Positions 45,513-59,743 of a stretch of 64,000 bases of DNA are shown in pieces. The position numbers were made by a program, and so were the translations under genes. This DNA is from Deltaproteobacteria bacterium. Lineage in GTDB: Bacteria > Myxococcota_A > Polyangia > Polyangiales > Houyiibacteriaceae. Every line of letters starts with the position of its first letter. Position 1 is the first letter of the stretch. The notes beneath the pieces were generated by a model. That model did not search any database. It was not told where the DNA came from and saw only the letters and a program-made list of their open reading frames with translations. The DNA lies in NCBI GenBank assembly GCA_034670305.1, contig JAXMNT010000008.1:128001-192000 (forward strand), read 5' to 3'.

Positions 45513-45730
45513 GAGGGCTGCTTCCTACGGACGGGGGGCGCGGGAACGCAGAGCAGCGCTCTGCGCACGGTGTGAAGCAGGTGTCCCAAGCAGTGTCGAG
45601 GATATCACCCGACACCCGGAGGGGGATGCCAATCGCGTGAACCCATGGGGTTTCAGGACTCCACGAGCGCCGATCCGCAAGCGCGATCCCGCAAGTAGAC
45701 CAAGCCCGGCGTTCCATGGGGCTCCGGGCT

Positions 45731-47716
45731 CTAACGCACGAGCCGGGCGGTGCGAAGCTCCCCGTTGCGCAACCACGCCAGGGTTCCGTCGTTGGACAGG
45801 CTCGGGGACGCATGCACCGCCTCGTCGAGGCCGCCAATGGGCGCCCGATTCCGCGTCGAGAGATCCACGAGCCACAGACGGCTCGCGACCACGACGTGCC
45901 CGTCGTCTTCGGGGACCGCGTACACGAGGTGGGTCGAGTCCGCGGAGAACCGAGCGTGCGTGCCCATGCCGAGCGAGACCACCGCCGCCGAGTCGCGTTC
46001 GTAGACGTACAGCCCGGTCGAGACCCCCTGGAACACGACGAAACGCCCGTCGGGCGAGACCCTCGGCGCGAAGTACCGGTCGCCGGCCGGACCGAGGTGG
46101 GTGCCATCGGCGAGCACGATGGTCCCGTCTTGGGTGACGCGCGCTTGTCCCCCGACCGACACCGGCGCCACTTCACGGCCATCCATGGTCAAGGCGAGCA
46201 TCGGCACCGCGGTCTCGGTCTGGCCAGGCACCCGCACGCCGAGCACATCGCCGGTCGAGTTCCACACCGGCGCGAAGCCGCGTCGCTCCCCGCGCGTCAG
46301 CTCGAGGATGGTCTCTTGGTCTGCGTCCCAGACATCGACGCCCGCGTAGCCAGGCAACGAGAGCGCCACGCGCGCGCCCGTCGGTGCCATCTCAGCGGCC
46401 GCGTACGTGCCGGACACGGGTGCCTGGATGTGCTCGAGGGTCGCGAGCACCTCGGCGTCGTGCACGAGCTGCACCTCTTCGGTCGACTCGAGCGACGCTT
46501 GCTGCTGTGCCGGCGCCGCCGAGCCGCATCCTTGAAGGCAGAGGAGGACCGCGATCGGTGCGATCACGTACGAGATGCGGCGGCGACGGCCGAGCGCGAG
46601 CAAGCCGAGCGCGAGCAGCGCCCATCCCGCCGACCCGGTCCCGCGTTGCCACGGCGCGGCGGCACACCCCACTTCGAGATCGCCGCCTGTCGTTCCCATG
46701 CCTGCATCGGCGCCGGTGGCTGCGTCTGCCGCGACCCCCGAGTCGGTGGCCGGCGTGCCGGCATCGACCGCTGGTCCCGCGTCGATCATCGGCGGCCCGG
46801 CATCGGAGGCGGCGGTGCTGCGGGTCAGCCCGATGCTGCACCAGGTCTCCGCGCCGGAGGTCACGTCGCAGGTTCGGCTGGCCTCTTCGAACCCGGCCAA
46901 CGTCGCTCGTACCGTGGCGCTGCCAGCCGCTACCGAGAACGACCAGTTGCCGGTGTCGGCTTCGCTCGTCGCGGAAGCGTCTCCCACCGTCACCGTGGCG
47001 CCGGCCAACCGGCGCGAGGTGTCTTCGAGCCCGGCCCCGACGTCTTCGAACACGACGCCGCGAAGCGTGCCCATGCCGGTCGGCGGCATGCCAGGGTCTC
47101 GGCCGTAGTGGCGCATGATCGCGTTGAAGTGGGCCTGCGCCATCTCCTGCCGGCGCTCCGGGCTGCCGAGGAGCGGGCTGTCGATCTCGCAGTGGTTGAT
47201 GAAACCCATCTCGGAGAGCGTCGCCGGCATGGTGGTGTTGGTGAGGACCGAGAAGTTCGCGCGTTTGCTCCCGCGGTCGCGCAGTCCCCAGGCCGCGATC
47301 ATCTCTTCCTGGATGAGCCCCTGCAGGGCCACCGAGTTCGCCGACGGACTCTCCGACACGAAGGTCTCGGTGCCCGTGGCCGGCGTGCCCGCGTTGGCGT
47401 TCGAGTGAATGGAGACGAAGCGGTCGGCGCCGCGCGAGTTCGCGAGGCTGGATCGGGCGGACAGCGCGACGGCGCGATCATCGGTCCGGGTCATCAGCAC
47501 CTCGAAGCCGGCACCCAGCAGCAGCGCCTGCAGTCGGATGGCCGTGTCGAGCACGATGTCCTCTTCTTCCCGTCCACACCCGACCCCGCCCGGGTCGGCG
47601 CCCCCATGGCCAGGATCCACTGCGATCAGCTGAGCCGACGCCTGGCCAGCGGGCATGGCGAGCGGCGTGGCGAGCGCGGTGGCGAGAAGCAAGAGCAGGA
47701 CGGAGCGCGGGTTCAT
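45731..47716 (-). CDS. N-acetylmuramoyl-L-alanine amidase + carboxypeptidase-regulatory-like domain + internal MYXO-CTERM + lipoprotein TolB-like beta-propeller
   Basis: VDPGHGGADPG, SIHSN, LSEMGF; GTLRGVV...ATVTV; GCAAAP...WALLALGLLALGRRRR; LLCLQGC; APVW, PRVSPDG, ARFSADS, PSLSNDG. Confidence 0.85.
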   Translation of the reverse strand: MNPRSVLLLLLATALATPLAMPAGQASAQLIAVDPGHGGADPGGVGCGREEEDIVLDTAIRLQALLLGAGFEVLMTRTDDRAVALSARSSLANSRGADRFVSIHSNANAGTPATGTETFVSESPSANSVALQGLIQEEMIAAWGLRDRGSKRANFSVLTNTTMPATLSEMGFINHCEIDSPLLGSPERRQEMAQAHFNAIMRHYGRDPGMPPTGMGTLRGVVFEDVGAGLEDTSRRLAGATVTVGDASATSEADTGNWSFSVAAGSATVRATLAGFEEASRTCDVTSGAETWCSIGLTRSTAASDAGPPMIDAGPAVDAGTPATDSGVAADAATGADAGMGTTGGDLEVGCAAAPWQRGTGSAGWALLALGLLALGRRRRISYVIAPIAVLLCLQGCGSAAPAQQQASLESTEEVQLVHDAEVLATLEHIQAPVSGTYAAAEMAPTGARVALSLPGYAGVDVWDADQETILELTRGERRGFAPVWNSTGDVLGVRVPGQTETAVPMLALTMDGREVAPVSVGGQARVTQDGTIVLADGTHLGPAGDRYFAPRVSPDGRFVVFQGVSTGLYVYERDSAAVVSLGMGTHARFSADSTHLVYAVPEDDGHVVVASRLWLVDLSTRNRAPIGGLDEAVHASPSLSNDGTLAWLRNGELRTARLVR

Positions 47717-47948
47717 GCCATGGGTTTAGCAAACACCGTGCGCGCACCGAAGCGTGGCGCGCCGGAGCGAGTCGTGCGGCCCGGTGCTCGAAAGGTCGTC
47801 TTCCCCCGACAAATGCAGTGCTTGGCTGCTCGACGCACCAATCGGCACCCAGCCGCCCGGTCTCGAGGTCGTGCCAATCGGCCCCACCCAGCGTTCAGAC
47901 TCTGGTCACTTGCGCCCTGGACCGAACCCCAGCGACCCTCTCCGCGTG

Positions 47949-48839
47949 ATGCCACGAACCCTGGTGCTGGCGGTTTGCGTGCTCGGTTGCTCGAACCCGT
48001 TGCCGGGCCGCAACGACACCGGTGGATTCGACGCGGGCAACCGAGACGCCAGCGCCGACGCCAGACCGGACTCGGATCCCATGGACGTCGGCCCCATCGA
48101 CTCGGCGAGCGACGCTCCAGACGCGCCCATCGACTGCGACACCGCGTTCCGGTTCGACCCGGCCGCCTCTGGCACCGGCGAAGTGAACCAGGTCTCCTAC
48201 CGCCACATCGAAGGGCTCACGCACATCGGCCTCACGGTGAGCGCACCGAGCGAAGTCGGCCGCGTGGCGATCAGCGGCGAAGGCGGACTCAACATCTGGA
48301 CCTTCCCCGTCGCGTTCCACGAAGCGGGGATCTACGACGTCGCGTTCACCGCGGAGATGGGCGGCCGCGTGCTCGGCACCTGCCGGGTGTCGGTCGCCGA
48401 CACCGGGCCCCCGCCCGACCTCGAGGATCCGCCCGACTGCACCGGCCGCGTCTGCGGGGAGTCGGACGGCGCCGGCGGAACTTGCAGTCGCTGTCCGATG
48501 GTCGAGAGCGAAGGTGGGGCGTGCATGGACCCGCCTTCCCCGATCGGACCCGGCGGACCCGGCCCGTGGTCGTGTTTGGACAGCGCTGGATGCACCGGCG
48601 GCGGCTGCGTGATCTGGTGCCCAGGCGAACCGTGCGACACCGAGCGGCATCCGGACGGCTGTCCACAAGGCGTCGAGTCGTGTTTCGTCGAACCGGGCAT
48701 CACCGACTACGAAGAAGCCTGCCGCACCTGTTGCCGCGCCCGCCACCACGCGCCGACTGGCGAGTTCGCCTGCTGGGATGACGCGATCAACGTCTGCCGC
48801 TACCCCGGCGACTGCGGCATGCCCTTCCCGCTTCCCTGA
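47949..48839 (+). CDS. Cys-rich lipoprotein
   Basis: VLG-C lipobox, DAG linker, beta-sandwich-like segment, C-terminal Cys-rich region ([11 protein letters not shown]). Confidence 0.72.
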
Positions 48840-48850
48840 GTTCTTCGGAA

Positions 48851-49090
48851 TCGGCGTCGGCTCACGAATCGGCGCCGACATCGGCTTCGGCGTCGGCATC
48901 GGCATCGGCTTCGGCGTCGGCTTCGGCATCGGCGTCGGCTTCGGCGTCGGCGTCGGCTTCGGCTTCGGCGTCGGAGTCGGCTTCGGCTTCGGCGTCGGCG
49001 TCGGGGTCGGAGTCGGCTTCGGCATCGGCTTCGGCTTCGGCATCGGCATCGGCATCGGCTTCGGCTTCGGCATCGGCTTCGGCGTCCGCA
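48851..49090 (+). repeat. (TCGGCN)n hexamer microsatellite
   Basis: Visible 6-bp periodicity between convergent genes. Confidence 0.93.
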
Positions 49091-49125
49091 TCGGGTGCGC
49101 CCAGCCAGCAGCATGAGCGGAATCC

Positions 49126-49221
49126 GCGGCAGAATCAGCGGCAGAATCAGCGGCAGTATCAGCGGCAGAATCAGCGGCAGTATCAGCGGCAGAATCAGCG
49201 GCAGTATCAGCGGCAGAATCA
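49126..49221 (+). repeat. 12-bp tandem repeat GCGGCAG(A/T)ATCA, 8 copies
   Basis: Counted directly; A/T alternates from unit 2 onward. Confidence 0.93.
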
Positions 49222-49294
49222 CCGGCGGAATCGGCTTCGGCGCAGCGTCGACATCGGCTTCGGCGTCGGCTGCAGCGTACGTCGGCTTCCCGCC

Positions 49295-50239
49295 TCAGTC
49301 GTCCATCGCCCCAGCCATCACCCACCCGCGGACCGCCTCGAGCGCCTCCGCCGAGATCGGGTCGCCGCCAGCCGGCATCCGTTCACCGCAACTCGGCGTC
49401 TCGTTGCTCAACTTGTCCACCAGCAGCGACGCGCCGAGATCGCCGGCCACCACGCGGGTGCCCATCGCATCGCACCCCGTGCCCATCGCTGCGGTCCCCA
49501 CGAGGTTCGCGTAGGCCAACTCCCGCGTGCTCAGGTCGAGCCGGTTGAACTCGATCTCTTCCGCCGCTGGGTTGTGACAGCTGCGTCCGCACTGGGGCAG
49601 CAGCACCCGCTCGAAGATGCTCGTGAAGGTCGGTTCGATGGGTCCCAGCGCTTGCGCTTCCACGACGGCGCCGATGGGCGTCGCACCGGCGGGATGCGGC
49701 GTGGTGCGTTCCACCACGGGCGCACCGCACGAGAGCCAGTTGCGGAACACCTCGATGCCTTCGATCGAATCCGCGAAGAGCGGCACGCGGTTGCCGTCGG
49801 CGTCGAACCAACGTTTGGCGCCGATGAGCGCTTCGGTCGCGGCTGCGCCCCCAGGCGGCATCGTGCCGTTCTCGACCGCCGTCAGCATGTCCTGACGGAA
49901 GTCGCGCACGTTGGCGTGCGAAGCCGCCAGTCGATCAGCGGTGCCGAGCGTCGCGTCGGTGCTGGCGAGCTGCACGTCGAAGTCGAGCCCACCCGGTGCG
50001 CCGAAGCGTTCCGCGCCGGTCACGTCGCTCCGGTGGCAGTACCCCGTGTTCGCGCAGTTGGTCGCAAGCATCGCCTGGCCCTCGAACGCGGGCAGTCCTG
50101 CTTCATCGAAGACCACCCGTTCCGCCGCAGCGGTGTCGCAGCCGCCGAGGTCTGCTTTGCACCCCATCGAGGCGAACACGGCGGTTCCCAGCAGAAGCCC
50201 GCCAACCCTTGCAACCCATCCCACGCGGCAAGCATACAT
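49295..50239 (-). CDS. Lipoprotein with two atypical c-type heme motifs
   Basis: SMG-C lipobox; CANTGYCH...MPP and CGRSCH...RMP...WVMAGA. Confidence 0.7.
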
Positions 50240-50277
50240 CCGTGCGGAGCTGCGCGCGCCCTCGATCCATCGGGGCG

Positions 50278-50736
50278 CTACGGGAGCTGAAACGTGCGCA
50301 CGAAGTCGTCACCGACCGCGTGGCAGCCGGTGCAGATCTCGGGCTGTCCGCTGAAGAGGGTGTCGCCGCCACCGTCGTACTCGACGTAGAACCACTGGTC
50401 GGGCGTGACCTTCTCCATGCCGGCGATGAAGCAGAGTTCCCCGCCTTCGTAGCCGTCCTTCACAATCACCGAACCCACCGGCCAGGTCTCGGTCGTCGGG
50501 TCCGCGAGCGCCGCTTCGACCACGTCGTTGACCCACACTTCGACTTCGTCTCCATGCGCAGCCCGACTCGGTTCGAGCCCGGGGTAGCCAGGCGCCCGGG
50601 CCCAACTGCGGTAGTCCTCGGCCTGGATGGTCTCCCAGAAGCGGGCCGCGCCCTCGGGATCCTGGTCGTCGCCGCACCCGGCCACGAACACCGAGGCGAG
50701 AACTGCAGAACAAAGTGCGGCGCACGAGCGGCTCAT
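50278..50736 (-). CDS. Cytochrome P460-family lipoprotein
   Basis: VAG-C lipobox; YRSW, HG..V.VWVN, WPVGSVIVKD, MEK, WFY, CTGCH near the C-terminus. Confidence 0.75.
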   Translation of the reverse strand: MSRSCAALCSAVLASVFVAGCGDDQDPEGAARFWETIQAEDYRSWARAPGYPGLEPSRAAHGDEVEVWVNDVVEAALADPTTETWPVGSVIVKDGYEGGELCFIAGMEKVTPDQWFYVEYDGGGDTLFSGQPEICTGCHAVGDDFVRTFQLP

Positions 50737-51950
50737 GGGATCGCGAGGGGTGGAACCGCGGGCGGGATGCTCGGCTTGCGCTTCGGGAGGAACGCGAGCG
50801 GTTCGAAGAGCATCAGCGCCTCTTCGGGCAAGCCCTCCACCATCTGCACCAGCTCCGCCTTCTTCAGGTAGATCTCTTCGCGTCGACCGTCGTCGTGTTC
50901 GAACTTGAGCGAGAGTTCGCTGTCGTTCGGGGAGTGCGCGTTGACCGCGGCTGCGATCGGCGCGAGCCGCGCGGCGATGCGCTCGAGCAACGTTCGCGTC
51001 AAACCGCGTTCGAACACGTCGTGTTCGTCGAGCTGCGCGTAGACGAGCCGCTTCTTGCGCTGAAGCAGCGGCGCGCACTCGGCGCGCAGCACCGCGGCCA
51101 GCTCTTCGATGCGCTGGAGGTCCTCGCCCGACGAGGAGAACGGATCGCCTTCACGCCGAGAGACCCGCGCCACCGAGGCACCGGTGTCGTCCACGTCCAG
51201 ATCGACGATGTAGCTGTCGCGGGGCGCATCCATCTTCTTGCGGAGGTGGACCTCCATCGAGTCCGGGCCGAGCTCGACCTCGGTCACGTAGAACTCGTCG
51301 AGTGAGTGCACGTCCGGGTTGAGCGAGCTGCGCAGAAACGCCTTCTTGAAACCCACCTGGATCGTCATGCCGGGGGAGAGTTCCCCAAGCTTGCGCGGCT
51401 GGCTCCATCCGCTGTTGCCCACTTCGAGCGCGAAACAGGTCGTGAGCTCGCCCGGGTGCACGAGCACGGCTTGGCCCTGCGGTGCGGTGCCGCCTAGGTT
51501 GAGCGAGAGCGCCCACGACAGGGTCGGCAGCGGATCTGCGAGGAGAAACGACTGAAGCACCTGTCGCAGCTGGTTGCGCTTGGCGCCGATCTCTTGCGTG
51601 ACGTTCATCGACTCCTGGTCGAGGTTGGCATTGCGCGACTGACGTGCATGGGTGCCGATCGTCTCCACCTGCTCCAGGATCTGCCGCGCGTAAGGCCCGA
51701 TGAGCTGCGGCGCCCCCGACCGGGCCGCGCTGTGCGCAATGGTCGTCGTCAGGTTCTCGAAGAAGTTCTGGATCGCTTCGACCGCGTGCAGATGCTCCTG
51801 CGCACGCTCACCGAGGTTCTGTTCGAGTTGGTCGGCTTCGTACGAGAGCAGGAGCGCTTGGCTGGCGGCCTCCACGAAACTGCGCAGCTCGCGCAAGAAG
51901 TCGTAGCCATCGGCGAAGGGCGACGAATCGCCATAGAGATAGTTCGGCAC
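50733..51950 (-). CDS. Conserved-looking hypothetical cytoplasmic protein
   Basis: Coding-like ORF starting VPNYLYGDSSPF; ATGA overlap with the downstream gene. Confidence 0.75.
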   Translation of the reverse strand: MPNYLYGDSSPFADGYDFLRELRSFVEAASQALLLSYEADQLEQNLGERAQEHLHAVEAIQNFFENLTTTIAHSAARSGAPQLIGPYARQILEQVETIGTHARQSRNANLDQESMNVTQEIGAKRNQLRQVLQSFLLADPLPTLSWALSLNLGGTAPQGQAVLVHPGELTTCFALEVGNSGWSQPRKLGELSPGMTIQVGFKKAFLRSSLNPDVHSLDEFYVTEVELGPDSMEVHLRKKMDAPRDSYIVDLDVDDTGASVARVSRREGDPFSSSGEDLQRIEELAAVLRAECAPLLQRKKRLVYAQLDEHDVFERGLTRTLLERIAARLAPIAAAVNAHSPNDSELSLKFEHDDGRREEIYLKKAELVQMVEGLPEEALMLFEPLAFLPKRKPSIPPAVPPLAIP

Positions 51951-52066
51951 GGCAGAACAGCCTATCTCTTCGCCAGAGCCGCTGTACAGACCCAGTGGCA
52001 CAACGCGGCCGTTCCAAGATACACTGCGGGCCAGTGGCAGTGGAGCAGGCCGGGGGGGGCGACGAA

Positions 52067-53590
52067 GTGTCGGGTGACGTGGAAGAGTCCGCGGTCGGAG
52101 CCCGCACGCAGGCACCCCCACATGGTGAACCCACCATCGGCGTGTCCGGCATCGCCCGGACAAGTACGCCCCCGCCGCTGGTCGAGTTCGGCCGGTACCG
52201 CGTCCTCGGGCGGCTGGCCGTGGGCGGCATGGCGGAGATCTTCCTGGCCGAAGAAGCGGCCGGCGATGGGGCCCGGTCGGTCGTGATCAAGGTGTTGCGG
52301 CATCAACTCCGCGACGACCCGGCATTCGACGCGCTCTTCCGACAGGAAGGGTCCATGACGATGCAGCTCGCCCACCCCAACATCTGCACCGTCTACGATT
52401 TCGGGAAGCAGAACGATCTGTTCTTCATCGCGATGGAACACGTCGACGGGGTCACCCTCTGGGAGATCCTTGGCCGCTTGAGCCGACAGAAGAAGCGGAT
52501 CCAGCCGGCGCTCGCGGTCGCGATTCTTTCGCGCGTCGCCGCCGCCCTCGACTACGCCCACCACGCCCGCGATTCGAAACGCAAGGTGCTCGGGGTGGTT
52601 CATCGGGACGTCTCGCCGCACAACGTGATGGTCCGCTTCGACGGGGTCGTGAAGCTGCTCGACTTCGGCGTCGCCAAAGTCCAGTCGCTGGAAGAGACCG
52701 AAGAGAAGTCGATGGTCAAGGGCAAGTCGGCGTACTTGGCGCCGGAGCAATGCCAGTCCAAACCCCTCGATGGACGCTGCGATGTGTTCGCGCTCGGCAT
52801 CTGCCTGTTCGAAGCGCTCACAGGCCGTCGACTCTACCGGCGCGAAGGGGCGTTCGAGACCTTCAAGGCGATCGTGCAAGAGCCGCCCCCCGACCTCTCG
52901 AAACACTTCGACCCGGGCCTCGCCAAAATCGTCAAGACCGCGCTGGGCAAGGCGCCGGAAGACCGGTATCCGACCGCGGGCAAGATGCACCTCGAGATGG
53001 AACGGTGGCTCTCCGAGCAGCGAGAGGTGATCACCGCCGCACGCCTCGAAGACTTCTTGCACGAACTGTTCGGTGAAGACGCGGACCGGGCACCGACGCT
53101 GGAGCGCGGTCCGGAAGCGATCGCCCGACTGAAAGCCAACGCGCCGGTTTCCGCTCCGGTCCCCGAGACGACGAGCCGTCCCAAGTGGATGTGGATGGCA
53201 GCAGCCGCCGCGGTGATCGGCATCGCCGGCGGCGCCTACGCCGCACTGAGCGGCCCTGCACCCGACGAACACTCCGACGAGCGGGCGGAACAGCAGGCCG
53301 CGCTCACAGCGCAAGCGCGTGACCTCGAAGCCCAGTCGCGTGCGCTCGAGGAACGAAGCGCCGCTCACGAAGCCAACCAAGCGGAGGCTATCGAGAGGGC
53401 GGAAGCAGCCCGGCGCGAGGCGGAAGCCGCGGCTTTGGAAGCAGCCGCGGCGGCCGCAGCCGCGCAGGCAGAAGCAGAAGCAGCAGCGGCGGAAGCCGCC
53501 GCCCAGGCAGAAGCAGAAGCCGCCTCCATGACCGCGTCGATGAGACGCACCACCATGCGACGACGTTTCGTTCGGGAGCCGGACTTTTGA
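52067..53590 (+). CDS. Membrane Ser/Thr kinase with Ala/Glu-rich coiled-coil C-terminus (start approximate)
   Basis: LAVGGMAEIF, VIK, HRDVSPHN, DFGVAK, KGKSAYLAPE; TM segment; EAAAA repeats. Confidence 0.9.
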   Translation: MSGDVEESAVGARTQAPPHGEPTIGVSGIARTSTPPPLVEFGRYRVLGRLAVGGMAEIFLAEEAAGDGARSVVIKVLRHQLRDDPAFDALFRQEGSMTMQLAHPNICTVYDFGKQNDLFFIAMEHVDGVTLWEILGRLSRQKKRIQPALAVAILSRVAAALDYAHHARDSKRKVLGVVHRDVSPHNVMVRFDGVVKLLDFGVAKVQSLEETEEKSMVKGKSAYLAPEQCQSKPLDGRCDVFALGICLFEALTGRRLYRREGAFETFKAIVQEPPPDLSKHFDPGLAKIVKTALGKAPEDRYPTAGKMHLEMERWLSEQREVITAARLEDFLHELFGEDADRAPTLERGPEAIARLKANAPVSAPVPETTSRPKWMWMAAAAAVIGIAGGAYAALSGPAPDEHSDERAEQQAALTAQARDLEAQSRALEERSAAHEANQAEAIERAEAARREAEAAALEAAAAAAAAQAEAEAAAAEAAAQAEAEAASMTASMRRTTMRRRFVREPDF

Positions 53591-54357
53591 TACGCACCAT
53601 CGGGCGCCCCGCGCTCGCCCTCTTTCTTCTCTTCGCACTCGGCTCGGAGCTGCACGCCCAGGCGCCGGCCGAGGACGGTTCGACCAACGGTTCGACCGAC
53701 GAAGACACGAACCGGGAACGGGCCCGGGCCCTCTTCCGGGAAGGGGTCGATCACGTCGAAGCGAGGGACTTGGAGGCGGCCGCGACGGCGTTCGAAGCCG
53801 CGCTCGGTTTCCACGACGCGTCGTCGATCCGGTTCAACCTCGCCTCCGCGCTGTTCGAGCTCGATCGGTTCACCGCCGCGTACCCGCACCTCGTGCAGCT
53901 CCAGGAGACATCGGAACTCGAGGCCGTCATGGCCCGCAGTGTGCGCCGCATGCTCGACCGGTCGACCGCGCGCATCGGGCGTCTGACCATCCGAGCGAGC
54001 GGCTCGATCGAGGAGGTCGCGCTCGACGGGGAGGTGCTGCCCGCCGGTCAAGAAGTCACCCCCGTCGAGCCGGGATCCCACGTGGTGGAAGGCCGCGTGG
54101 CCCAAGAGGTCGCGGTGCGACGGGAGGTCGCGGTCGCCGCCGGCGAACGCGCCATCGTGGATCTCACACTCGTCCGTATCGAAGACGAACAAGACCCCCT
54201 GCCCATCGTCGAGACGCCGAGCCGGGTGGGTCGCCGCGTCGGCATCATCGCCGCCGTGGTGGCGGTGGTTGCCGTGGGCGTGGTCCTCGGCGTCGTGCTC
54301 TCGGGCGGTGAGGACGAAGTCCAAGGGGACCTGAACCCCGGAGTCCTCCGATGGTGA
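53587..54357 (+). CDS. TPR + PEGA-like protein with C-terminal TM segment
   Basis: ARALFREG...FEAA...FNLA; V.LDG...VEPGSH; hydrophobic tail. Confidence 0.75.
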   Translation: MIRTIGRPALALFLLFALGSELHAQAPAEDGSTNGSTDEDTNRERARALFREGVDHVEARDLEAAATAFEAALGFHDASSIRFNLASALFELDRFTAAYPHLVQLQETSELEAVMARSVRRMLDRSTARIGRLTIRASGSIEEVALDGEVLPAGQEVTPVEPGSHVVEGRVAQEVAVRREVAVAAGERAIVDLTLVRIEDEQDPLPIVETPSRVGRRVGIIAAVVAVVAVGVVLGVVLSGGEDEVQGDLNPGVLRW

Positions 54358-55478
54358 ACACTCGGTGCTTCTGCGCTGCCCTCCTTCTCTTGGCCCTCGC
54401 GTGCTCGAGCGACCCGACCCAGGTGATCGTCGTCGTCGACAGTGACCTGACGGTCCCGTCCGAACTCGACGGGTTGGTCATCGAAGTCACCGGCCCAGAC
54501 GGTGAAGTGCAGAGCGCGAGCGGCGGACTCGGCCCGATGGAGTTGCCGCTCCCCCGCACGCTCGCCCTCAGTCACACCTCGGGTGCCCTCGGCCCGTTTG
54601 ACGTCGTCGCGCGCGGACAGCGCAGTGGTGCGACCGTCATCGAGCGGCGCGCCCAGTTCGAGTTCCAGCAAGGGCGGGTGCTCGTCCTTGAGATGCATCT
54701 CGTCCGGAGCTGCCTCGGCGTCGCGTGCGTCTCCGGAGAGACCTGTTCGGAGCGGGGCTGTGTCTCGACCCTGGTGCCGCCGAGCGCGCTGCCCGAATGG
54801 ACCGGACTGCCCCCCATGCTGGGGGATGCCGGGCCAACGGACGGTGGTGTCGACGCGGGCATCGACGCACCGCCCGACACCTCGTTCGATGCGTGTGTCC
54901 CGATGGGCAGCGAACTCTGCGACGGACTCGACCAAGACTGCGACGGGCGCATCGACGAGGGCTTCGCCGAGATCGCCGATGTCTGCGCCGACGGCCTCGA
55001 CCAAGACTGCGATGGGCGCACCGACGAAGGCTCGGATGAGCTGTGCAACGGGGCCGACGACGACTGCGACGACGCCGTGGACGAAGGCCTCGAGGGCGTC
55101 GAGGAACTCTGCGACGGTCTCGATCAGGACTGCGACACGCTCGTCGACGAAGGGCTGGCCGGCACGCCCGAGGTCTGCGACGGCTTGGACCAGGACTGCG
55201 ACGCGATGGTCGACGAAGGCTTCGACACCCTGACCGACGTCGACCATTGCGGCGGGTGCGGAATGGTGTGCCGCGTGATGAATGGAACCCCGAGCTGCGC
55301 GGCGGGCACGTGCGTGGTCGAGAGCTGCAACGGGACCTTCGCCAACTGCGACGGCCGGGTCGACAACGGCTGCGAAGTCGACACCAATGTGAGCACCATG
55401 CACTGCGGCACCTGCACGAACGAGTGCAGTCCACCGCTCCGCATGTGCTGCGCCGGCACCTGCGCCCGCGACTGCTGA
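54351..55478 (+). CDS. Lipoprotein with five CDGLDQDCDG..DEG repeats and a C-terminal Cys-rich domain
   Basis: ALA-C lipobox; TQVIVVVDSDL; five repeats; HCGGCG and HCGTC. Confidence 0.82.
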   Translation: MVNTRCFCAALLLLALACSSDPTQVIVVVDSDLTVPSELDGLVIEVTGPDGEVQSASGGLGPMELPLPRTLALSHTSGALGPFDVVARGQRSGATVIERRAQFEFQQGRVLVLEMHLVRSCLGVACVSGETCSERGCVSTLVPPSALPEWTGLPPMLGDAGPTDGGVDAGIDAPPDTSFDACVPMGSELCDGLDQDCDGRIDEGFAEIADVCADGLDQDCDGRTDEGSDELCNGADDDCDDAVDEGLEGVEELCDGLDQDCDTLVDEGLAGTPEVCDGLDQDCDAMVDEGFDTLTDVDHCGGCGMVCRVMNGTPSCAAGTCVVESCNGTFANCDGRVDNGCEVDTNVSTMHCGTCTNECSPPLRMCCAGTCARDC

Positions 55479-55493
55479 GCGGCTAGACCCTGA

Positions 55494-56684
55494 TCAGCGT
55501 GTGCGCATGCGCTCGAGGCGCTCCGTCAGTTGCGCCTCGGTGTCGATGCTCGTCGCACGTCCGTGTCCGAGCGCCTTGAAGACCGACTGAACTTCGGCGA
55601 GTCCGCGCGCCGCCGCTTGCGCGGCCGCTTTCGGGCTGCCCTTGAACGGGTGGGCCTCACACGTGCCAGTCGCCGGATCGTAGCCCCAGGTCCCGAACAC
55701 CCGGCCGCCCAGTTGCAGGGTGCGGTCGAGCGGCTGACCGCTTTCTCCAATCGGCGTCTGCTTGCCTCGTCCGAACGTCGCGATCGGGAACCCCCGGTGC
55801 GCCGGTTCCAAGAGCGGCGCCGCGGAGAGTCGCATCGCGAAGAGGTTGTCGAGCGCGGGGATCAGCGCGACCGCGGGTTTGCCGATCGCGGGCGGCTTCG
55901 AACCCGCGACCACGAACGCTTCGCCGAGTTCCTCGACCTCGACGCAGTCGAAGGCGCCGCGTTCGATCGCGGCTTTGGCTTCGGTCTGGTTCAGCCCCGT
56001 CCACGACGCGAACTCCTTGCGGGTCGCCGGCCCTGCCCATTGGAAGAACCGTTTCGCCAGCGCGTCGTGCGCCGCCTCGGGTTGCATGGACTTCGCGACT
56101 TTGCCGGTGGCCGTCCACGCGTAGCGTTCGTGGTCGAGCCGATCGTCCACCGGCACCCGCGCGATGCGTCCGGCGAACTCCAAGCGGCGGAGCGCCGAAG
56201 GAAGCGTGGTGGTGAGCCCAACCTTCTTGCCCGCTGGCCCCAGCGACCGCACCAGACCCTCGGGAAGCGCCGCCGAGAGCGCGCGGGTTTCGGTCGGCGT
56301 CTTCAGCCGCTTCAGGATGTCCTTCGCGAGGCCGTCGACCTCGTCGAGCGAGCTGCCCGCCTTCTCGAGATCGCGCGCCATGCGTTTGTCGCTCTGAGCC
56401 GCAGCGACCGCGAGCGAGAGCGGCACGTCCGCTTTGGGCACCAAGTACATGCAGCCCCGCACCGAGGGCACCACACAGAGCGCACCCTTCTTCACCGCCG
56501 CATGCACGGACTTGACCGTGGCTTTGGAAGTCCGGGCCGCGAGCGCGAGGTACGCCTCCGCCCCGCCGATCGTCCGGAGCCACCCGGTCGACGCCGCCGC
56601 CTTCGCGAGCGAAAGATCCCCCCGCGCGTGCAGCCCCTGTCCATGCGCCCATGCCGAGCGCGCCTGAGTGAGTGTCCATGCCAT
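55494..56684 (-). CDS. AlkZ/YcaQ-like (HTH_42) crosslink-repair glycosylase family protein
   Basis: YLALAAR, VRGCMYLV, RFFQWAGPAT..EFASWTGL, LIPALD, GRVFGTW. Confidence 0.75.
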   Translation of the reverse strand: MAWTLTQARSAWAHGQGLHARGDLSLAKAAASTGWLRTIGGAEAYLALAARTSKATVKSVHAAVKKGALCVVPSVRGCMYLVPKADVPLSLAVAAAQSDKRMARDLEKAGSSLDEVDGLAKDILKRLKTPTETRALSAALPEGLVRSLGPAGKKVGLTTTLPSALRRLEFAGRIARVPVDDRLDHERYAWTATGKVAKSMQPEAAHDALAKRFFQWAGPATRKEFASWTGLNQTEAKAAIERGAFDCVEVEELGEAFVVAGSKPPAIGKPAVALIPALDNLFAMRLSAAPLLEPAHRGFPIATFGRGKQTPIGESGQPLDRTLQLGGRVFGTWGYDPATGTCEAHPFKGSPKAAAQAAARGLAEVQSVFKALGHGRATSIDTEAQLTERLERMRTR

Positions 56685-56741
56685 CGGGGCCGATGACAGC
56701 ATGAGAGTGGCCGTTGGTGATAGAGGGGGCGGGGGCGGTCG

Positions 56742-56915
56742 CGGGAGCGGAAGCGGAAGCGGAAGCGGTCGGAAGCGGAAACGGAAGCGGTCGCGGTCGC
56801 GGAAGCGGAAGCCGAAGCCGAAGCCGAAGCCGAGGCCGAGGCCGAGGCCGAAGCCGAAGCCGAAGCCGAGGCCGAAGCCGAAGCCGAGGCCGAAGCCGAA
56901 GCCGAAGCCGAAGCC
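56742..56915 (-). repeat. Composite microsatellite: on the minus strand (TCGGCT/C)n then (TCCGCT)n
   Basis: Plus strand (GCGGAA)n then (GCCGAA/GCCGAG)n. Confidence 0.92.
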
Positions 56916-56969
56916 GCTGTCTCTGCCCGTCCGCTCGAATCGCTGGCGGTTTCAGATAGGCTCGGCGGC

Positions 56970-58184
56970 GTGACCCACTACGCCTTCGTCCTGCAGGTGC
57001 TGATCGGCGGCGCGCTGGTGGTGGGGGCGGCCGCGGTGATGCGGAACCGGTTCTTCGCGACGTTCACGACGGTGCTGCTCACGGTGCAGGGCATCACCGC
57101 GGTGGCGCTGTGGCCGCGCTATGCGTGGGCGGCGCCGGCCTTCATCTACTTGCAGGCGTGCGTGCATCTGCACTTCTTGAGTCTGTCGCGTGCGCGGATG
57201 CGGCCGCTCGCCTGGCGGCTCCTGATCAGCATCCCCGGACTCTTCTTCGGGGCCATCATGCTCTTCGGGTTGCCGTGGGGCATCGTCGCGCTCTTCGGCC
57301 GCACCCCCTACGGCGTGGAGTTCGTCTTCGTCGCCGCGGCGGTTGGCGTGGTGCAGTCGCTCTACACGCGGGAGCGGACGGTCGACGTCGTGCTCGATGG
57401 CGAAGACGTCGGTGCGCAGCGCCGACTCGCGCTTCCCAAGGCCGCACCCACCGAACACGAGCCACTCCGCATCGTACAGATCACCGACCCGCACCTCGGG
57501 CCGCTGATGAGCGTGCGTCGGCTGCGCCGCATCTGCGAGCGGGCGGTCGCGCGGGACCCACACCTCGTGCTGCTCACCGGCGATTTTCTCACGATGGAGT
57601 CCCACGCGGATCCGATGGTCCTCGAAGACTCGCTCCGGCCGCTCGCCGCGATCAGCGACCGCGTCTTCGCGTGTTTCGGCAACCACGACCACGAAGCACC
57701 GGAGCTCGTGCGCCACGTATGCCGCACCTTGGGAATCACCCTGCTGGTCGACCAGGAGACCAGGGTAGACACACCGGCCGGTCCAGTGCAGCTCGTCGGG
57801 GCCGACTACGCATTCCGCAAACGGCGCGAACACTTGGCGGCTCTGGCGCAGAAGTTCCCCCGCCGCGAGGACCACCTGCGGGTGTGGCTCCTCCACGACC
57901 CAGGCGCGTTCCGCCACATCCCCGAAGGCGAAGCGGATCTCGTCTTCAGCGGTCACACCCACGGCGGACAGGTCGGGCTCGTCTCCCTCGGCATCCCGTG
58001 GACGTTCGTGAGCGCGTTCACGCCAATCCCCGACTTCGGCTTCTGGGGACGCGGCCCCGACCGGCTCTACGTGCACCGCGGCACCGGCGTCTACGGGTTC
58101 CCGCTGCGCGTCGGCGTGCCCGGCGAGCAGTCCCTCGTGCGCGTGTTCGACCAGCGCGCGCCCCTCCGGCCCGAGACCGCATGA
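56970..58184 (+). CDS. Membrane-anchored metallophosphoesterase (YkuE/YaeI-like)
   Basis: N-terminal TMs; TDPH, TGDF, GNHD, LHDP, SGHTHGGQ. Confidence 0.9.
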   Translation: MTHYAFVLQVLIGGALVVGAAAVMRNRFFATFTTVLLTVQGITAVALWPRYAWAAPAFIYLQACVHLHFLSLSRARMRPLAWRLLISIPGLFFGAIMLFGLPWGIVALFGRTPYGVEFVFVAAAVGVVQSLYTRERTVDVVLDGEDVGAQRRLALPKAAPTEHEPLRIVQITDPHLGPLMSVRRLRRICERAVARDPHLVLLTGDFLTMESHADPMVLEDSLRPLAAISDRVFACFGNHDHEAPELVRHVCRTLGITLLVDQETRVDTPAGPVQLVGADYAFRKRREHLAALAQKFPRREDHLRVWLLHDPGAFRHIPEGEADLVFSGHTHGGQVGLVSLGIPWTFVSAFTPIPDFGFWGRGPDRLYVHRGTGVYGFPLRVGVPGEQSLVRVFDQRAPLRPETA

Positions 58185-59743
58185 AGACCTCCCGCAGCAA
58201 GTGGCTCTACGATGGTCTCGCGGCGTTCAGCGTCGCGCTCGTACTCCTACCGCAGTCGCTTGCGTACGCCGAACTCGCCGGCATGCCCGCGTACCACGGC
58301 TTCTACGCCGCCGCGCTGCCTCCGCTCTTCGCCGCGTTCTTCGCGTCCTCGCCGTACCTGCAGACCGGCCCGACCGCGCTCACGAGCCTCCTCGCGTTCG
58401 CTGCCCTCGCCAACCTCGCCACGCCGGGCTCCACCGAATTCGTCGCGCTCGCCGCGCTCTTGGCGATCATCGTCGGCGCGATCCGGATCATCGTCGGCCT
58501 CATGGGCGCCGGTTCCATCAGCTACATGATGAGCCAACCCGTCGTCCGCGGGTTCACCGGTGGCGCGGCGGTCCTGATCCTCTTCTCGCAGTTGCCGAAG
58601 GTGTTCGGCGTACAAACCGATGGCTCGACGCTCGGGGCCGGCTTCGCCGCAGTACAGGACCCCGCGACGTGGAACCTCGAAGCCGTGGCACTGGCGGCCG
58701 CGACCGTCTTCGTGATGCTCGCCGGCAAGCACCTCTCCAAGTTCTTTCCCGGCGTGCTCGTCGCGGTGGTCGGCGGCACTCTGTTCGCGACGTGGTCGGG
58801 CTACGAAGGCGCGATGGTGGGCGAAGTGCCCGCCGTCGTCCTGCCGCCCTTCTCGCTCGACCTGCCGTGGTCGCGCGTGCCGCAGCTGCTCGTGAGCGGC
58901 CTCGTGCTCGCGGTGGTCGGATTCGCCGAAGTCGCATCCGTCTCGCAGACCTACGCCGAGCGCACCCGCACCCCCTGGGATCCGAACCGCGAGTTCATCA
59001 GCCAAGGCGTCGCGAACCTGACCGCCGGCGTCGCAGGCGGCTTCCCGGTGGGCGGCTCGTTCTCGCGCTCGGCGCTCGCCTACGAAGCCGGCGCCAAGAG
59101 CCGCCGGGCCGGAGCCCTGACCGGCGCGGTGGTCTTTCTCTGCGTGCCGTTCGCGGGCTTGCTCTCCCACCTGCCGATGGCCGTGCTCGGCGGCATCGTG
59201 CTCGGCGCGGTGGTGAAGCTGCTCGACCCCCGACCCTTGCTCGCGCTGTTCTCGCAGTCCCGGCTGCAGGCCACCGTCGCCTACGTGACCTTCGGCGCCA
59301 CGCTGGTCCTCGCGCCCCACGTCGAGTGGGCGGTGCTGCTCGGAGTGGGGGTCGCGCTCTTCGTGCACATCTGGCGGGAGCAGTGGTTCGAGGTCGACGT
59401 GCGTCAGGTGCCCGGCGCGCTCGTGCTCACCCCCGAGGGCGTGCTTTGGTTCGGCACCGCACCGCTCGTCGGCCGCGCCCTCGCCAAAGCCCTGGCCTCC
59501 GCCGACCCCAAGACCACCACCGTGATCATCGATCTCTCCCACCTCGGCCGCATCGATCTCAGCGGCGCGCTCGCCCTGGCCGAGATCGTCACCCGCGGCC
59601 GCGAAGCAAAGCTCGAAGTGCGGTTCGCGGATGTGCCCGAGCACTCCGGGCGCATCCTGCGCCGCGTCTGCCAAGACGTGCCCTGGGACCCCGACCCACC
59701 GGACCTCTCCGGCGTCGCGGAGGAGTCCGCAGAATCGGAGTAG
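58181..59743 (+). CDS. SulP family anion transporter with STAS domain
   Basis: LPQSLAYAELAG, TGPTA, NREFISQG.AN, GGSFSRSA, LWFG...IDLSG. Confidence 0.92.
   Translation: MKTSRSKWLYDGLAAFSVALVLLPQSLAYAELAGMPAYHGFYAAALPPLFAAFFASSPYLQTGPTALTSLLAFAALANLATPGSTEFVALAALLAIIVGAIRIIVGLMGAGSISYMMSQPVVRGFTGGAAVLILFSQLPKVFGVQTDGSTLGAGFAAVQDPATWNLEAVALAAATVFVMLAGKHLSKFFPGVLVAVVGGTLFATWSGYEGAMVGEVPAVVLPPFSLDLPWSRVPQLLVSGLVLAVVGFAEVASVSQTYAERTRTPWDPNREFISQGVANLTAGVAGGFPVGGSFSRSALAYEAGAKSRRAGALTGAVVFLCVPFAGLLSHLPMAVLGGIVLGAVVKLLDPRPLLALFSQSRLQATVAYVTFGATLVLAPHVEWAVLLGVGVALFVHIWREQWFEVDVRQVPGALVLTPEGVLWFGTAPLVGRALAKALASADPKTTTVIIDLSHLGRIDLSGALALAEIVTRGREAKLEVRFADVPEHSGRILRRVCQDVPWDPDPPDLSGVAEESAESE

Follow-up and report, generated by a model that had tools for sequence, protein, structure and literature searches.

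The subject of this report is a gene at 45731..47716 on the minus strand of a 64,000-nucleotide stretch of contig JAXMNT010000008.1 from a Deltaproteobacteria bacterium (the whole stretch is called the window below). In a single frame it encodes an N-acetylmuramoyl-L-alanine amidase and a TolB-like beta-propeller, and between these halves lie an internal MYXO-CTERM-type sorting tag and, directly behind the tag, an internal lipoprotein signal peptide; the two hydrophobic segments form a predicted membrane hairpin. The fused gene is not an assembly error: it is real and conserved. With somewhat more confidence than doubt, we read its product as a precursor that would be cut at both sites into two lipid-anchored envelope proteins; the cuts, the lipidations, the final location of the products and inhibition of the amidase are what we infer from the evidence that follows.

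The open reading frame (ORF) encodes 661 amino acids plus a stop and contains no internal stop; only three codons lie between the upstream stop and its ATG. The first-pass annotation had described a signal peptide, an amidase, a beta-sandwich and an Asp/Ala/Gly linker, followed without a stop by a sorting tag and a lipoprotein signal, and this order held up against the sequence, the Amidase_3 match, the modelled strands and the poorly modelled linker. All coordinates of the ORF are on the minus strand. It begins with a Sec signal peptide (residues 1–28, 47633..47716), read from the sequence and modelled as a helix at residues 3–20, with a putative cut site at …GQASA|QL. The Amidase_3 domain (residues 31–201, 47114..47626) matched Pfam PF01520 at 153.4 bits against a gathering score of 27 (E = 8.2e-45). 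Behind it comes a beta-sandwich of the CarboxypepD_reg/PEGA-like kind (residues ~215–300, 46817..47074), with strands at residues 215–299 modelled at a high predicted local distance difference test score (pLDDT); its CarboxypepD_reg-like Pfam match, at residues 233–293, scored 29.4 bits and did not reach the cut-off of 32.3. Two sandwich cysteines, C283 and C293, are invariant in a 54-sequence alignment, and homologues carry one to four sandwich copies. A disordered linker rich in Asp, Ala, Gly and Pro (residues 301–343, 46688..46816) leads to the junction. Residues 312–364 had a pLDDT below 50; despite this disorder the full-length model reached a predicted template-modelling score (pTM) of 0.78.

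At the junction, the internal tag (residues 344–380, 46577..46687) consists of GGDLEVGC, then GWALLALGLLALG with a spacer and a hydrophobic helix (residues ~361–376), then RRRR at residues 377–380. The same four arginines open the internal lipoprotein signal peptide (residues 377–397, 46526..46588) as its n-region, ahead of an h-region, ISYVIAPIAVLLC, and a lipobox, L-Q-G-Cys397; the letters that follow RRRR are ISYVIAPIAVLLCLQG-C. The two cysteine codons, 46664–46666 for Cys351 and 46526–46528 for Cys397, lie exactly where the first-pass annotation had put them. In the full-length model the junction is a pair of helices, at residues 363–377 and 382–396. After Cys397 come 264 more residues, close to the ~260 estimated earlier, that make up a TolB/PD40-like propeller (residues 398–661, 45734..46525), the fold beginning at about residue 412. 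The AlphaFold2 (AF2) model of the propeller had a pLDDT of 94.2 and a pTM of 0.88, and its PD40 match scored 22.4 bits against a cut-off of 20.9.

Both signals have the build of their class and stand in an unusual place. The tag shows the tripartite MYXO-CTERM arrangement of Cys351, helix (363–377) and arginines, and it has the usual context of an N-terminal signal peptide on the same protein and a myxosortase and a type II secretion system (T2SS) in the genome; instead of closing the protein, its profile match is followed by 281 codons. The arginines, h-region and lipobox likewise read as a type II signal peptide, one that begins at residue 377 of 661. In stand-alone propeller homologues (P0013, P0014, P0017, L030, L032 and L034) the lipoprotein signal is N-terminal.

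Authenticity of the junction was assessed from reads and from relatives. In Logan contigs, positions 45600–47900 were found in one piece with 0 differences in 4 of 4 runs, and the runs listed as carrying the sequence included none of RNA; the four runs are not independent, as they belong to a single study that is possibly the source of the window DNA. The comparative evidence outweighs that from reads. We searched 41 related genomes and found long stop-free frames over both halves, ten of which were read in eight genomes (two each in G000 and G014, one each in G017, G037, G013, G012, G004 and G006). All ten are fused, at 35–63% identity, and keep both cysteines and both hydrophobic segments; they share a G-C motif, about 20 hydrophobic residues, an Arg cluster, a loop, a second hydrophobic stretch and a [G/A]-Cys. 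The loop between the helices ranges from 0 to ~55 residues and is in frame each time, and positions beside both cysteines are free to vary while the cysteines are constant. The lipobox Cys has Gly or Ala at −1 in all ten, the nine others reading [LVTM][ATVL][GA]C. An eleventh copy, in G023, is split over two contig ends (L006 and L020), where the junction is unreadable. The first-pass annotation had named a stop after RRRR in orthologues, or an error in the reads, as what would undo its proposal; neither was found.

We extended the comparison to 1.84 billion representative proteins, using the C-terminal 279 residues as query, and obtained 1177 matches at E ≤ 1e-3. The amidase motif was present in 61 of the best 150 of these matches, and 58 of the 61 had the hairpin. 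A pool of 224 proteins, combining the best propeller matches with 90 matches of a word-indexed whole-protein search, held 121 with the amidase motif, of which 111 had the hairpin. Hairpins and lipoboxes were called by a classifier built on a hydropathy window and regular expressions, which overlooked the hairpin of P0192. A tag cysteine lies no more than 30 residues ahead of helix 1 in 110 of the 111 hairpin forms, mostly at 5–14 residues, where the Cys background is 1.4%; helix 2 ends in a lipobox in 73 of the 111. A median of 5 residues separates the two hydrophobic segments, and in 83 of the 111 forms the separation is at most 10. Given that median, an Arg cluster shared by both signals is a family rule, which bears out the dual role proposed earlier for RRRR.

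Several hairpin members that lack a lipobox (P0019, P0021, P0027, P0039, P0058 and others) have a Cys-free helix 2 with type I-like ends in AQA, AHA or ASA patterns, such as ASAGA|QQ, AFSAVA|E and SAQA|H; AxA-like ends of this sort carry little weight and are no evidence by themselves, since the pattern is frequent by chance. To judge from these sequences, the kind of signal that follows the tag seems to have switched frequently in the course of evolution. In the databases the proteins are named only 'N-acetylmuramoyl-L-alanine amidase', the exception being one JGI record, 'MYXO-CTERM domain protein'; Sandaracinus amylolyticus (homologue P0180) and Sandaracinaceae are among the sources given. 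We built a propeller-core tree with FastTree (midpoint-rooted, 176 rows) after dropping 35 of 211 hidden Markov model matches that covered less than 75% of the model. The tree largely separates stand-alone forms, split ones included, from hairpin forms, with ~15 changes implied per label; many rows labelled as stand-alone within the hairpin group are fragments. No order of events is drawn from this tree.

Some homologues depart from the common plan. L013 (in G013), P0007 and P0154 are ~1060 amino acids long and have an extra module of ~250 residues between their sandwiches; its Cys-rich segment and its weak match to an RlpA-like model (TIGR00413, 17.8 bits) suggest a second wall-binding or lytic domain. 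L004 (in G037; P0201), whose source genome belongs to a different family within the same order, stops early (…FDRTRG); only 232 residues follow its lipobox, and the last propeller blades are missing. In L033 (G255:C210:1500-7000) the amidase and sandwich occupy one frame and the tag, hairpin and propeller an overlapping other frame; this break between sandwich and tag reads as a frameshift, from either an assembly error or a pseudogene.

The genome encodes what both processing steps would need. Myxosortase MrtC (NF040594) scored 253 bits against a cut-off of 195 and the GspD secretin 499 bits against 351; LspA is present at one locus and Lgt at three. We also searched the genome in six frames with the MYXO-CTERM profile TIGR03901, which gave 89 matches at E ≤ 1, 60 of them at 20 bits or more. 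Of those 60, 46 reach a stop within 6 codons and 10 within 7–20 codons, and 4 run on for hundreds of codons. In all four run-on cases, as in the gene under study, the tag is followed by a hydrophobic segment and then a lipobox-like Cys. Five lower-scoring run-on matches have no such Cys and were taken as chance matches to a helix plus arginines.

One of the four is a paralogue of the gene under study (G000:C33:13846-16284, plus strand; L018:1005-3512), with 836 amino acids, three sandwich repeats, the same hairpin (…TVGC…RRR…VLGC) and a propeller; its internal tag scored 20.7 bits in the six-frame search. The three others are large proteins of one family unrelated to it, built of Cys-rich repeats of the MopE type and ending in an FGE-sulfatase-like domain: L040 (C20:98043-103172, plus strand), L041 (C29:40894-46296, plus strand) and L042 (C3, ~49578-58505, minus strand), of 1710, 1801 and at least 2976 codons. 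Each has an internal MYXO-CTERM tag (21–27 bits) and then a lipobox segment of the form …STGC/SSGC/TTGC-D-[VL]-x-P-[FY]-C, behind which come further repeats and the FGE-sulfatase-like end. The junction of tag plus lipobox is thus present in two unrelated families of one genome.

The same two modules also occur as separate genes. In a phylum-wide sample of 401 genomes, 31 had a propeller match at E ≤ 1e-10. In four of these (G267, G243, G410 and G292; loci L030, L031, L032 and L034) the propeller is a gene of its own, 275–311 codons long, with its own signal peptide, which has a lipobox in three cases. An amidase gene follows immediately downstream, and in L032 the propeller stop overlaps the next ATG by 1 nucleotide. 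The end of the split amidase is visible in two of the four (L031 and L032), and there it is a truly terminal Cys-helix-Arg tag of the MYXO-CTERM kind. The split pairs resemble the fused gene in both modules and both signals, and differ in being two genes in the order propeller then amidase, with an amidase from another subfamily: it has an extra Asp/Thr/Gly-rich insertion, lacks the WCS-type sandwich and carries Cys-rich DxDxDG-like repeats. As far as their sequences tell, the split forms are exactly the two products expected from cutting the precursor.

A third arrangement joins amidase straight to propeller without a hairpin, in P0025 (881 amino acids) and P0119 (448 amino acids). P0025 has four N-terminal repeats of ~95 residues each; P0119 has a short linker and looks low-G+C in origin. 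Since they occur together in split, direct and hairpin arrangements, amidase and propeller form a conserved pair.

The amidase module has the conserved residues expected of its family. H37, E51, H104 and E169 are invariant in 54 sequences, and by analogy with solved Amidase_3 enzymes we take them to be the metal and catalytic residues, H37 being presumably a zinc ligand. The AmiA/AmiB/AmiC equivalog models gave 66–77 bits against cut-offs of 400–700, which places the domain outside those groups. Over its full length the catalytic domain aligns with two small amidases, CwlV (1jwq) and 5emi, and its alignments to E. coli AmiA (8c2o) and AmiC (4bin) end at query residue ~111; in AmiA and AmiC the inhibitory helix is inserted just past the matching place. 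On this comparison it looks like an amidase without the built-in inhibitory helix of AmiA/AmiC, and would be unregulated by itself.

The propeller is less easily assigned. Its closest solved relative by profile is TolB (E = 2e-18), yet the TolB model TIGR02800 gave 17–21 bits (21.2) against a cut-off of 343, and only the propeller is present, not the TolB N-terminal domain. In VIA fold comparison TolB (7mx5) was matched with Z 15.5 and a root-mean-square deviation of 3.7 over 212 residues, the top Z being 17.1 for RbBP5. Fold searches named no function: Foldseek against the PDB returned only generic WD40/G-beta propellers at TMq ~0.5, no propeller family stood out in the wider VIA comparison, and the ESM Atlas gave generic TolB/PD40/DPPIV-N clusters (0.90–0.92).

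We modelled the two modules as a complex, using a 54-row alignment of full-length homologues cut to residues 28–305 and 400–661. The interaction prediction score from aligned errors (ipSAE) was 0.93 in 3 of 3 runs, and the best of three controls scored 0.00. The runs had 135–142 confident contacts, agreed in at least 97% of contacts and gave a partner pLDDT of at least 89. The ipSAE mark is reached by 116 of 157 solved complexes and by 2 of 215 mismatched pairs, counts that hold only roughly here because a custom alignment was used. The interface lies on one face of the propeller, where D604 and G606 are nearly invariant, and on the amidase side takes in H37, D41, N93–G96, loops 121–125 and 154–163 and part of the sandwich; its invariant or nearly invariant residues are H37, D41, N93, F155, M163, D604 and G606. 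Neither half led to a solved amidase-propeller complex: the amidase sequence retrieved nothing but amidases, and the propeller profile nothing but TolB and other propellers. A result owed to a memorised structure is therefore unlikely. The modelling speaks for binding between the two modules, in line with the first-pass suggestion of a partner or inhibitor. It would place the propeller on or beside the catalytic face, with H37 in the interface, where it may take the place of the inhibitory helix.

We propose the following sequence of events. The N-terminal signal peptide would direct the amidase and sandwich across the inner membrane by the Sec route, the MYXO-CTERM helix would halt transfer, and RRRR would remain cytoplasmic. 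The second hydrophobic segment would then restart export as an internal signal peptide, with the consequence that the propeller would reach the periplasm too. Lgt and LspA would act at Cys397 and yield a lipoprotein propeller; an acyltransferase and myxosortase MrtC would act at Cys351 and yield an amidase with a C-terminal lipid anchor, and a hairpin peptide of ~45 residues would be left over. Amidase and propeller would remain bound in a 1:1 complex in which the propeller, by its top face, rests against the catalytic face of the enzyme and holds or steers it, perhaps until the T2SS carries the amidase to the cell surface. Every prediction of this two-product scheme that could be computed found support, from the split relatives to the presence of MrtC, LspA, Lgt and GspD; the cuts themselves are inferred.

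The leading alternative is an uncut protein, anchored in the inner membrane by the two-helix hairpin with both domains in the periplasm and at work on the cell's own wall; the cysteine and lipobox would be remnants or have another role. We judge this rather unlikely, and several observations that weigh against cutting at both sites fall on its side. TIGR03901 gave only 14.9 bits at residues 350–380 (14.6 in six frames), below the cut-off of 20, and of the complete MYXO-CTERM-like signal described earlier the tripartite build stands and the profile score falls short; for comparison, the internal tags of L013 and L002 scored 20.4 and 17.6, and split amidase L031, whose tag is truly terminal, reached 14.7. 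By our heuristic, 38 of the 111 hairpin forms have no lipobox. The hairpin-less fusions P0025 and P0119, in which the modules are covalently joined, mean that such a link is tolerated and that cutting is not needed for the partnership. The tight packing of the domains in the models would suit one chain as well, because the alignment rows come from single polypeptides, and the model speaks for packing of the modules without bearing on whether they are separate chains. Two further points weigh against the two-product reading: Gln at −2 of a lipobox, as in LQGC, is unusual, and an amidase at the cell surface with a propeller on the periplasmic face of the membrane would make a lasting complex hard to keep.

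What an uncut hairpin leaves unaccounted for is the conservation of the processing motifs. A tag cysteine in 110 of 111 forms stands far above the 1.4% Cys background. The lipobox is kept in 73 of 111 forms and in 10 of 10 close homologues while adjacent residues vary, helix 2 ends without a lipobox still resemble type I cleavage sites, and the split relatives produce exactly two separately signalled proteins. P0053 (735 amino acids) fits neither the cut nor the uncut reading: it has amidase, sandwich and a MYXO-CTERM-like helix and no second hydrophobic segment, so its propeller as written would stay cytoplasmic, and it is either a broken copy or something unexplained.

We consider with some scepticism an elaboration of the two-product scheme in which the propeller is a safety catch: it would cap the amidase in the producer's own periplasm and release it at the surface after T2SS export, for use against prey or neighbours. 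Tag plus signal peptide would then be a joint that Myxococcota reuse to deliver enzyme and keeper in an exact 1:1 ratio, a part we hold just as tentatively. If this were true, the gene would encode a weapon that carries its own safety, and LspA would have an internal signal peptide as substrate.

A single cut is more doubtful still. LspA might free the propeller and leave the amidase on the hairpin, or myxosortase might free the amidase and leave the propeller on helix 2. In its favour, the lipobox of this gene is atypical in its Gln at −2, and our full-text literature search, which covered work outside subscription journals, found no printed case of LspA acting on an internal signal peptide; the two motifs are, on the other hand, similarly conserved, and both processing systems are encoded in the genome. 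An artefact or recent accident, whether a lost or misread stop after RRRR or two genes with an internal start, is very improbable: a GTG (Val383) does lie 14 codons ahead of Cys397 and high G+C yields long chance frames, but all 10 homologues in which the frame could be read (8 genomes) have it fused, as do more than 100 representatives from the database searches, the 4 runs all match the window without a difference, no start codon is conserved ahead of helix 2, and a ribosome on the upstream part would be unable to stop at the junction anyway.

The neighbourhood offered no conserved operon partner when 95 flanking open frames of 10 loci were scanned against Pfam; the matches (DnaJ, Sir2, YhbY, response regulators, Coq4, MMPL and GHL10) are all unrelated. 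A Ser/Thr kinase gene lies downstream in the window; no other neighbour there matched a Pfam family. Divergently upstream, within 47754–49325, is a plus-strand frame of 361 codons that starts like a lipoprotein (…AVCVLGC-S), has many cysteines and matches nothing in Pfam. A long low-complexity minus-strand frame rich in Pro, Lys, Thr and Met (47895–49325) overlaps it, and either strand may be the coding one.

What is new here is the amidase-propeller family, its three gene arrangements and the predicted complex; new also, as read from the sequences, is that throughout the family helix 2 appears to have stayed signal-peptide-like, be it of type I or type II. If the two-product reading is true, the gene would be a natural example of a single bacterial chain that two different lipid-anchoring pathways divide into a pair of envelope proteins, which would widen the known substrate range of both LspA and myxosortase, and the amidase-only name in databases would conceal a second product. 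A new kind of Amidase_3 partner is proposed as well, a TolB-like propeller for an enzyme without an inhibitory helix; this partnership rests on three independent arrangements (adjacent genes, direct fusion and hairpin fusion).

Amidase_3 enzymes under the control of a partner are known: E. coli AmiA, AmiB and AmiC depend on EnvC or NlpD, and S. aureus LytH on ActH. The amidase query matched PDB entry 7tj4, which we take to be the S. aureus LytH-ActH structure. The present case is alike in that an Amidase_3 domain would depend on a second envelope protein, here a predicted one; it differs in that the partner is neither a LytM nor a TPR protein but a TolB-like propeller, that it lies in the same chain, and that the AmiA/AmiC insertion is absent. 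TolB of the Tol-Pal system leads the solved structures matched by the propeller profile, whereas by fold many unrelated propellers score as well. The titles and abstracts listed in our literature search included no relevant work on an amidase with a beta-propeller lipoprotein inhibitor.

For the topology, the cytochrome b-c1 precursor FbcH of Bradyrhizobium follows the same logic of a stop-transfer segment plus an internal signal peptide. Glycoprotein precursors of flaviviruses and bunyaviruses are likewise one chain with a stop-transfer hairpin, an internal signal peptide and a cut on the far side. In the viral precursors and FbcH it is type I signal peptidase that cuts, there are no lipid anchors, and none is known to join a sortase-type tag to a lipoprotein signal.

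Proteins with a MYXO-CTERM tag are anchored by the tag helix, lipidated at the Cys, cut by myxosortase and brought to the surface by the T2SS, and sorting tags in mid-protein are functional, according to the accessible passages of PMC11980579; the legend of its Table S1 lists an amidase domain among the MYXO-CTERM proteins of M. xanthus. The Haft preprint on MYXO-CTERM has no mention of internal, lipobox, fusion or polyprotein.

Two proteins with a C-terminal type of tag in mid-protein come closest. In Haloferax volcanii, a Tat substrate has a central PGF-CTERM that is cut by the archaeosortase ArtA (Abdul Halim et al. 2017, via PMC6098224). It resembles our gene in that the tag came to lie in mid-protein after a gene fusion; as far as the accessible text of that source goes, it is archaeal and strain-specific, its NifU-domain part has no second signal peptide, and the two parts are not an exported partner pair. 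ArtA cleavage of this fusion was experimentally visible owing to its large downstream fragment, and the archaeal protein served as a read-out for the enzyme (PMC6098224). Because a large fragment likewise lies downstream of its tag, the present family would be an easy read-out for myxosortase cleavage.

The closest case in print is MXAN_5598 of Myxococcus xanthus, a protein whose internal MYXO-CTERM is described as rare, which is probably a gene fusion and whose N-terminal part is proposed to be processed and anchored (PMC11980579, mBio 2025). It shares with our gene a mid-protein MYXO-CTERM and a reading as two genes joined into one. It joins an adhesin to outer-membrane beta-barrel/OmpA modules and is a single case in print, and the passages available mention no signal peptide or lipobox after the tag; the present family, by comparison, has more than 100 representatives, a lipoprotein or type I signal behind the tag, and two halves that are predicted to bind each other.

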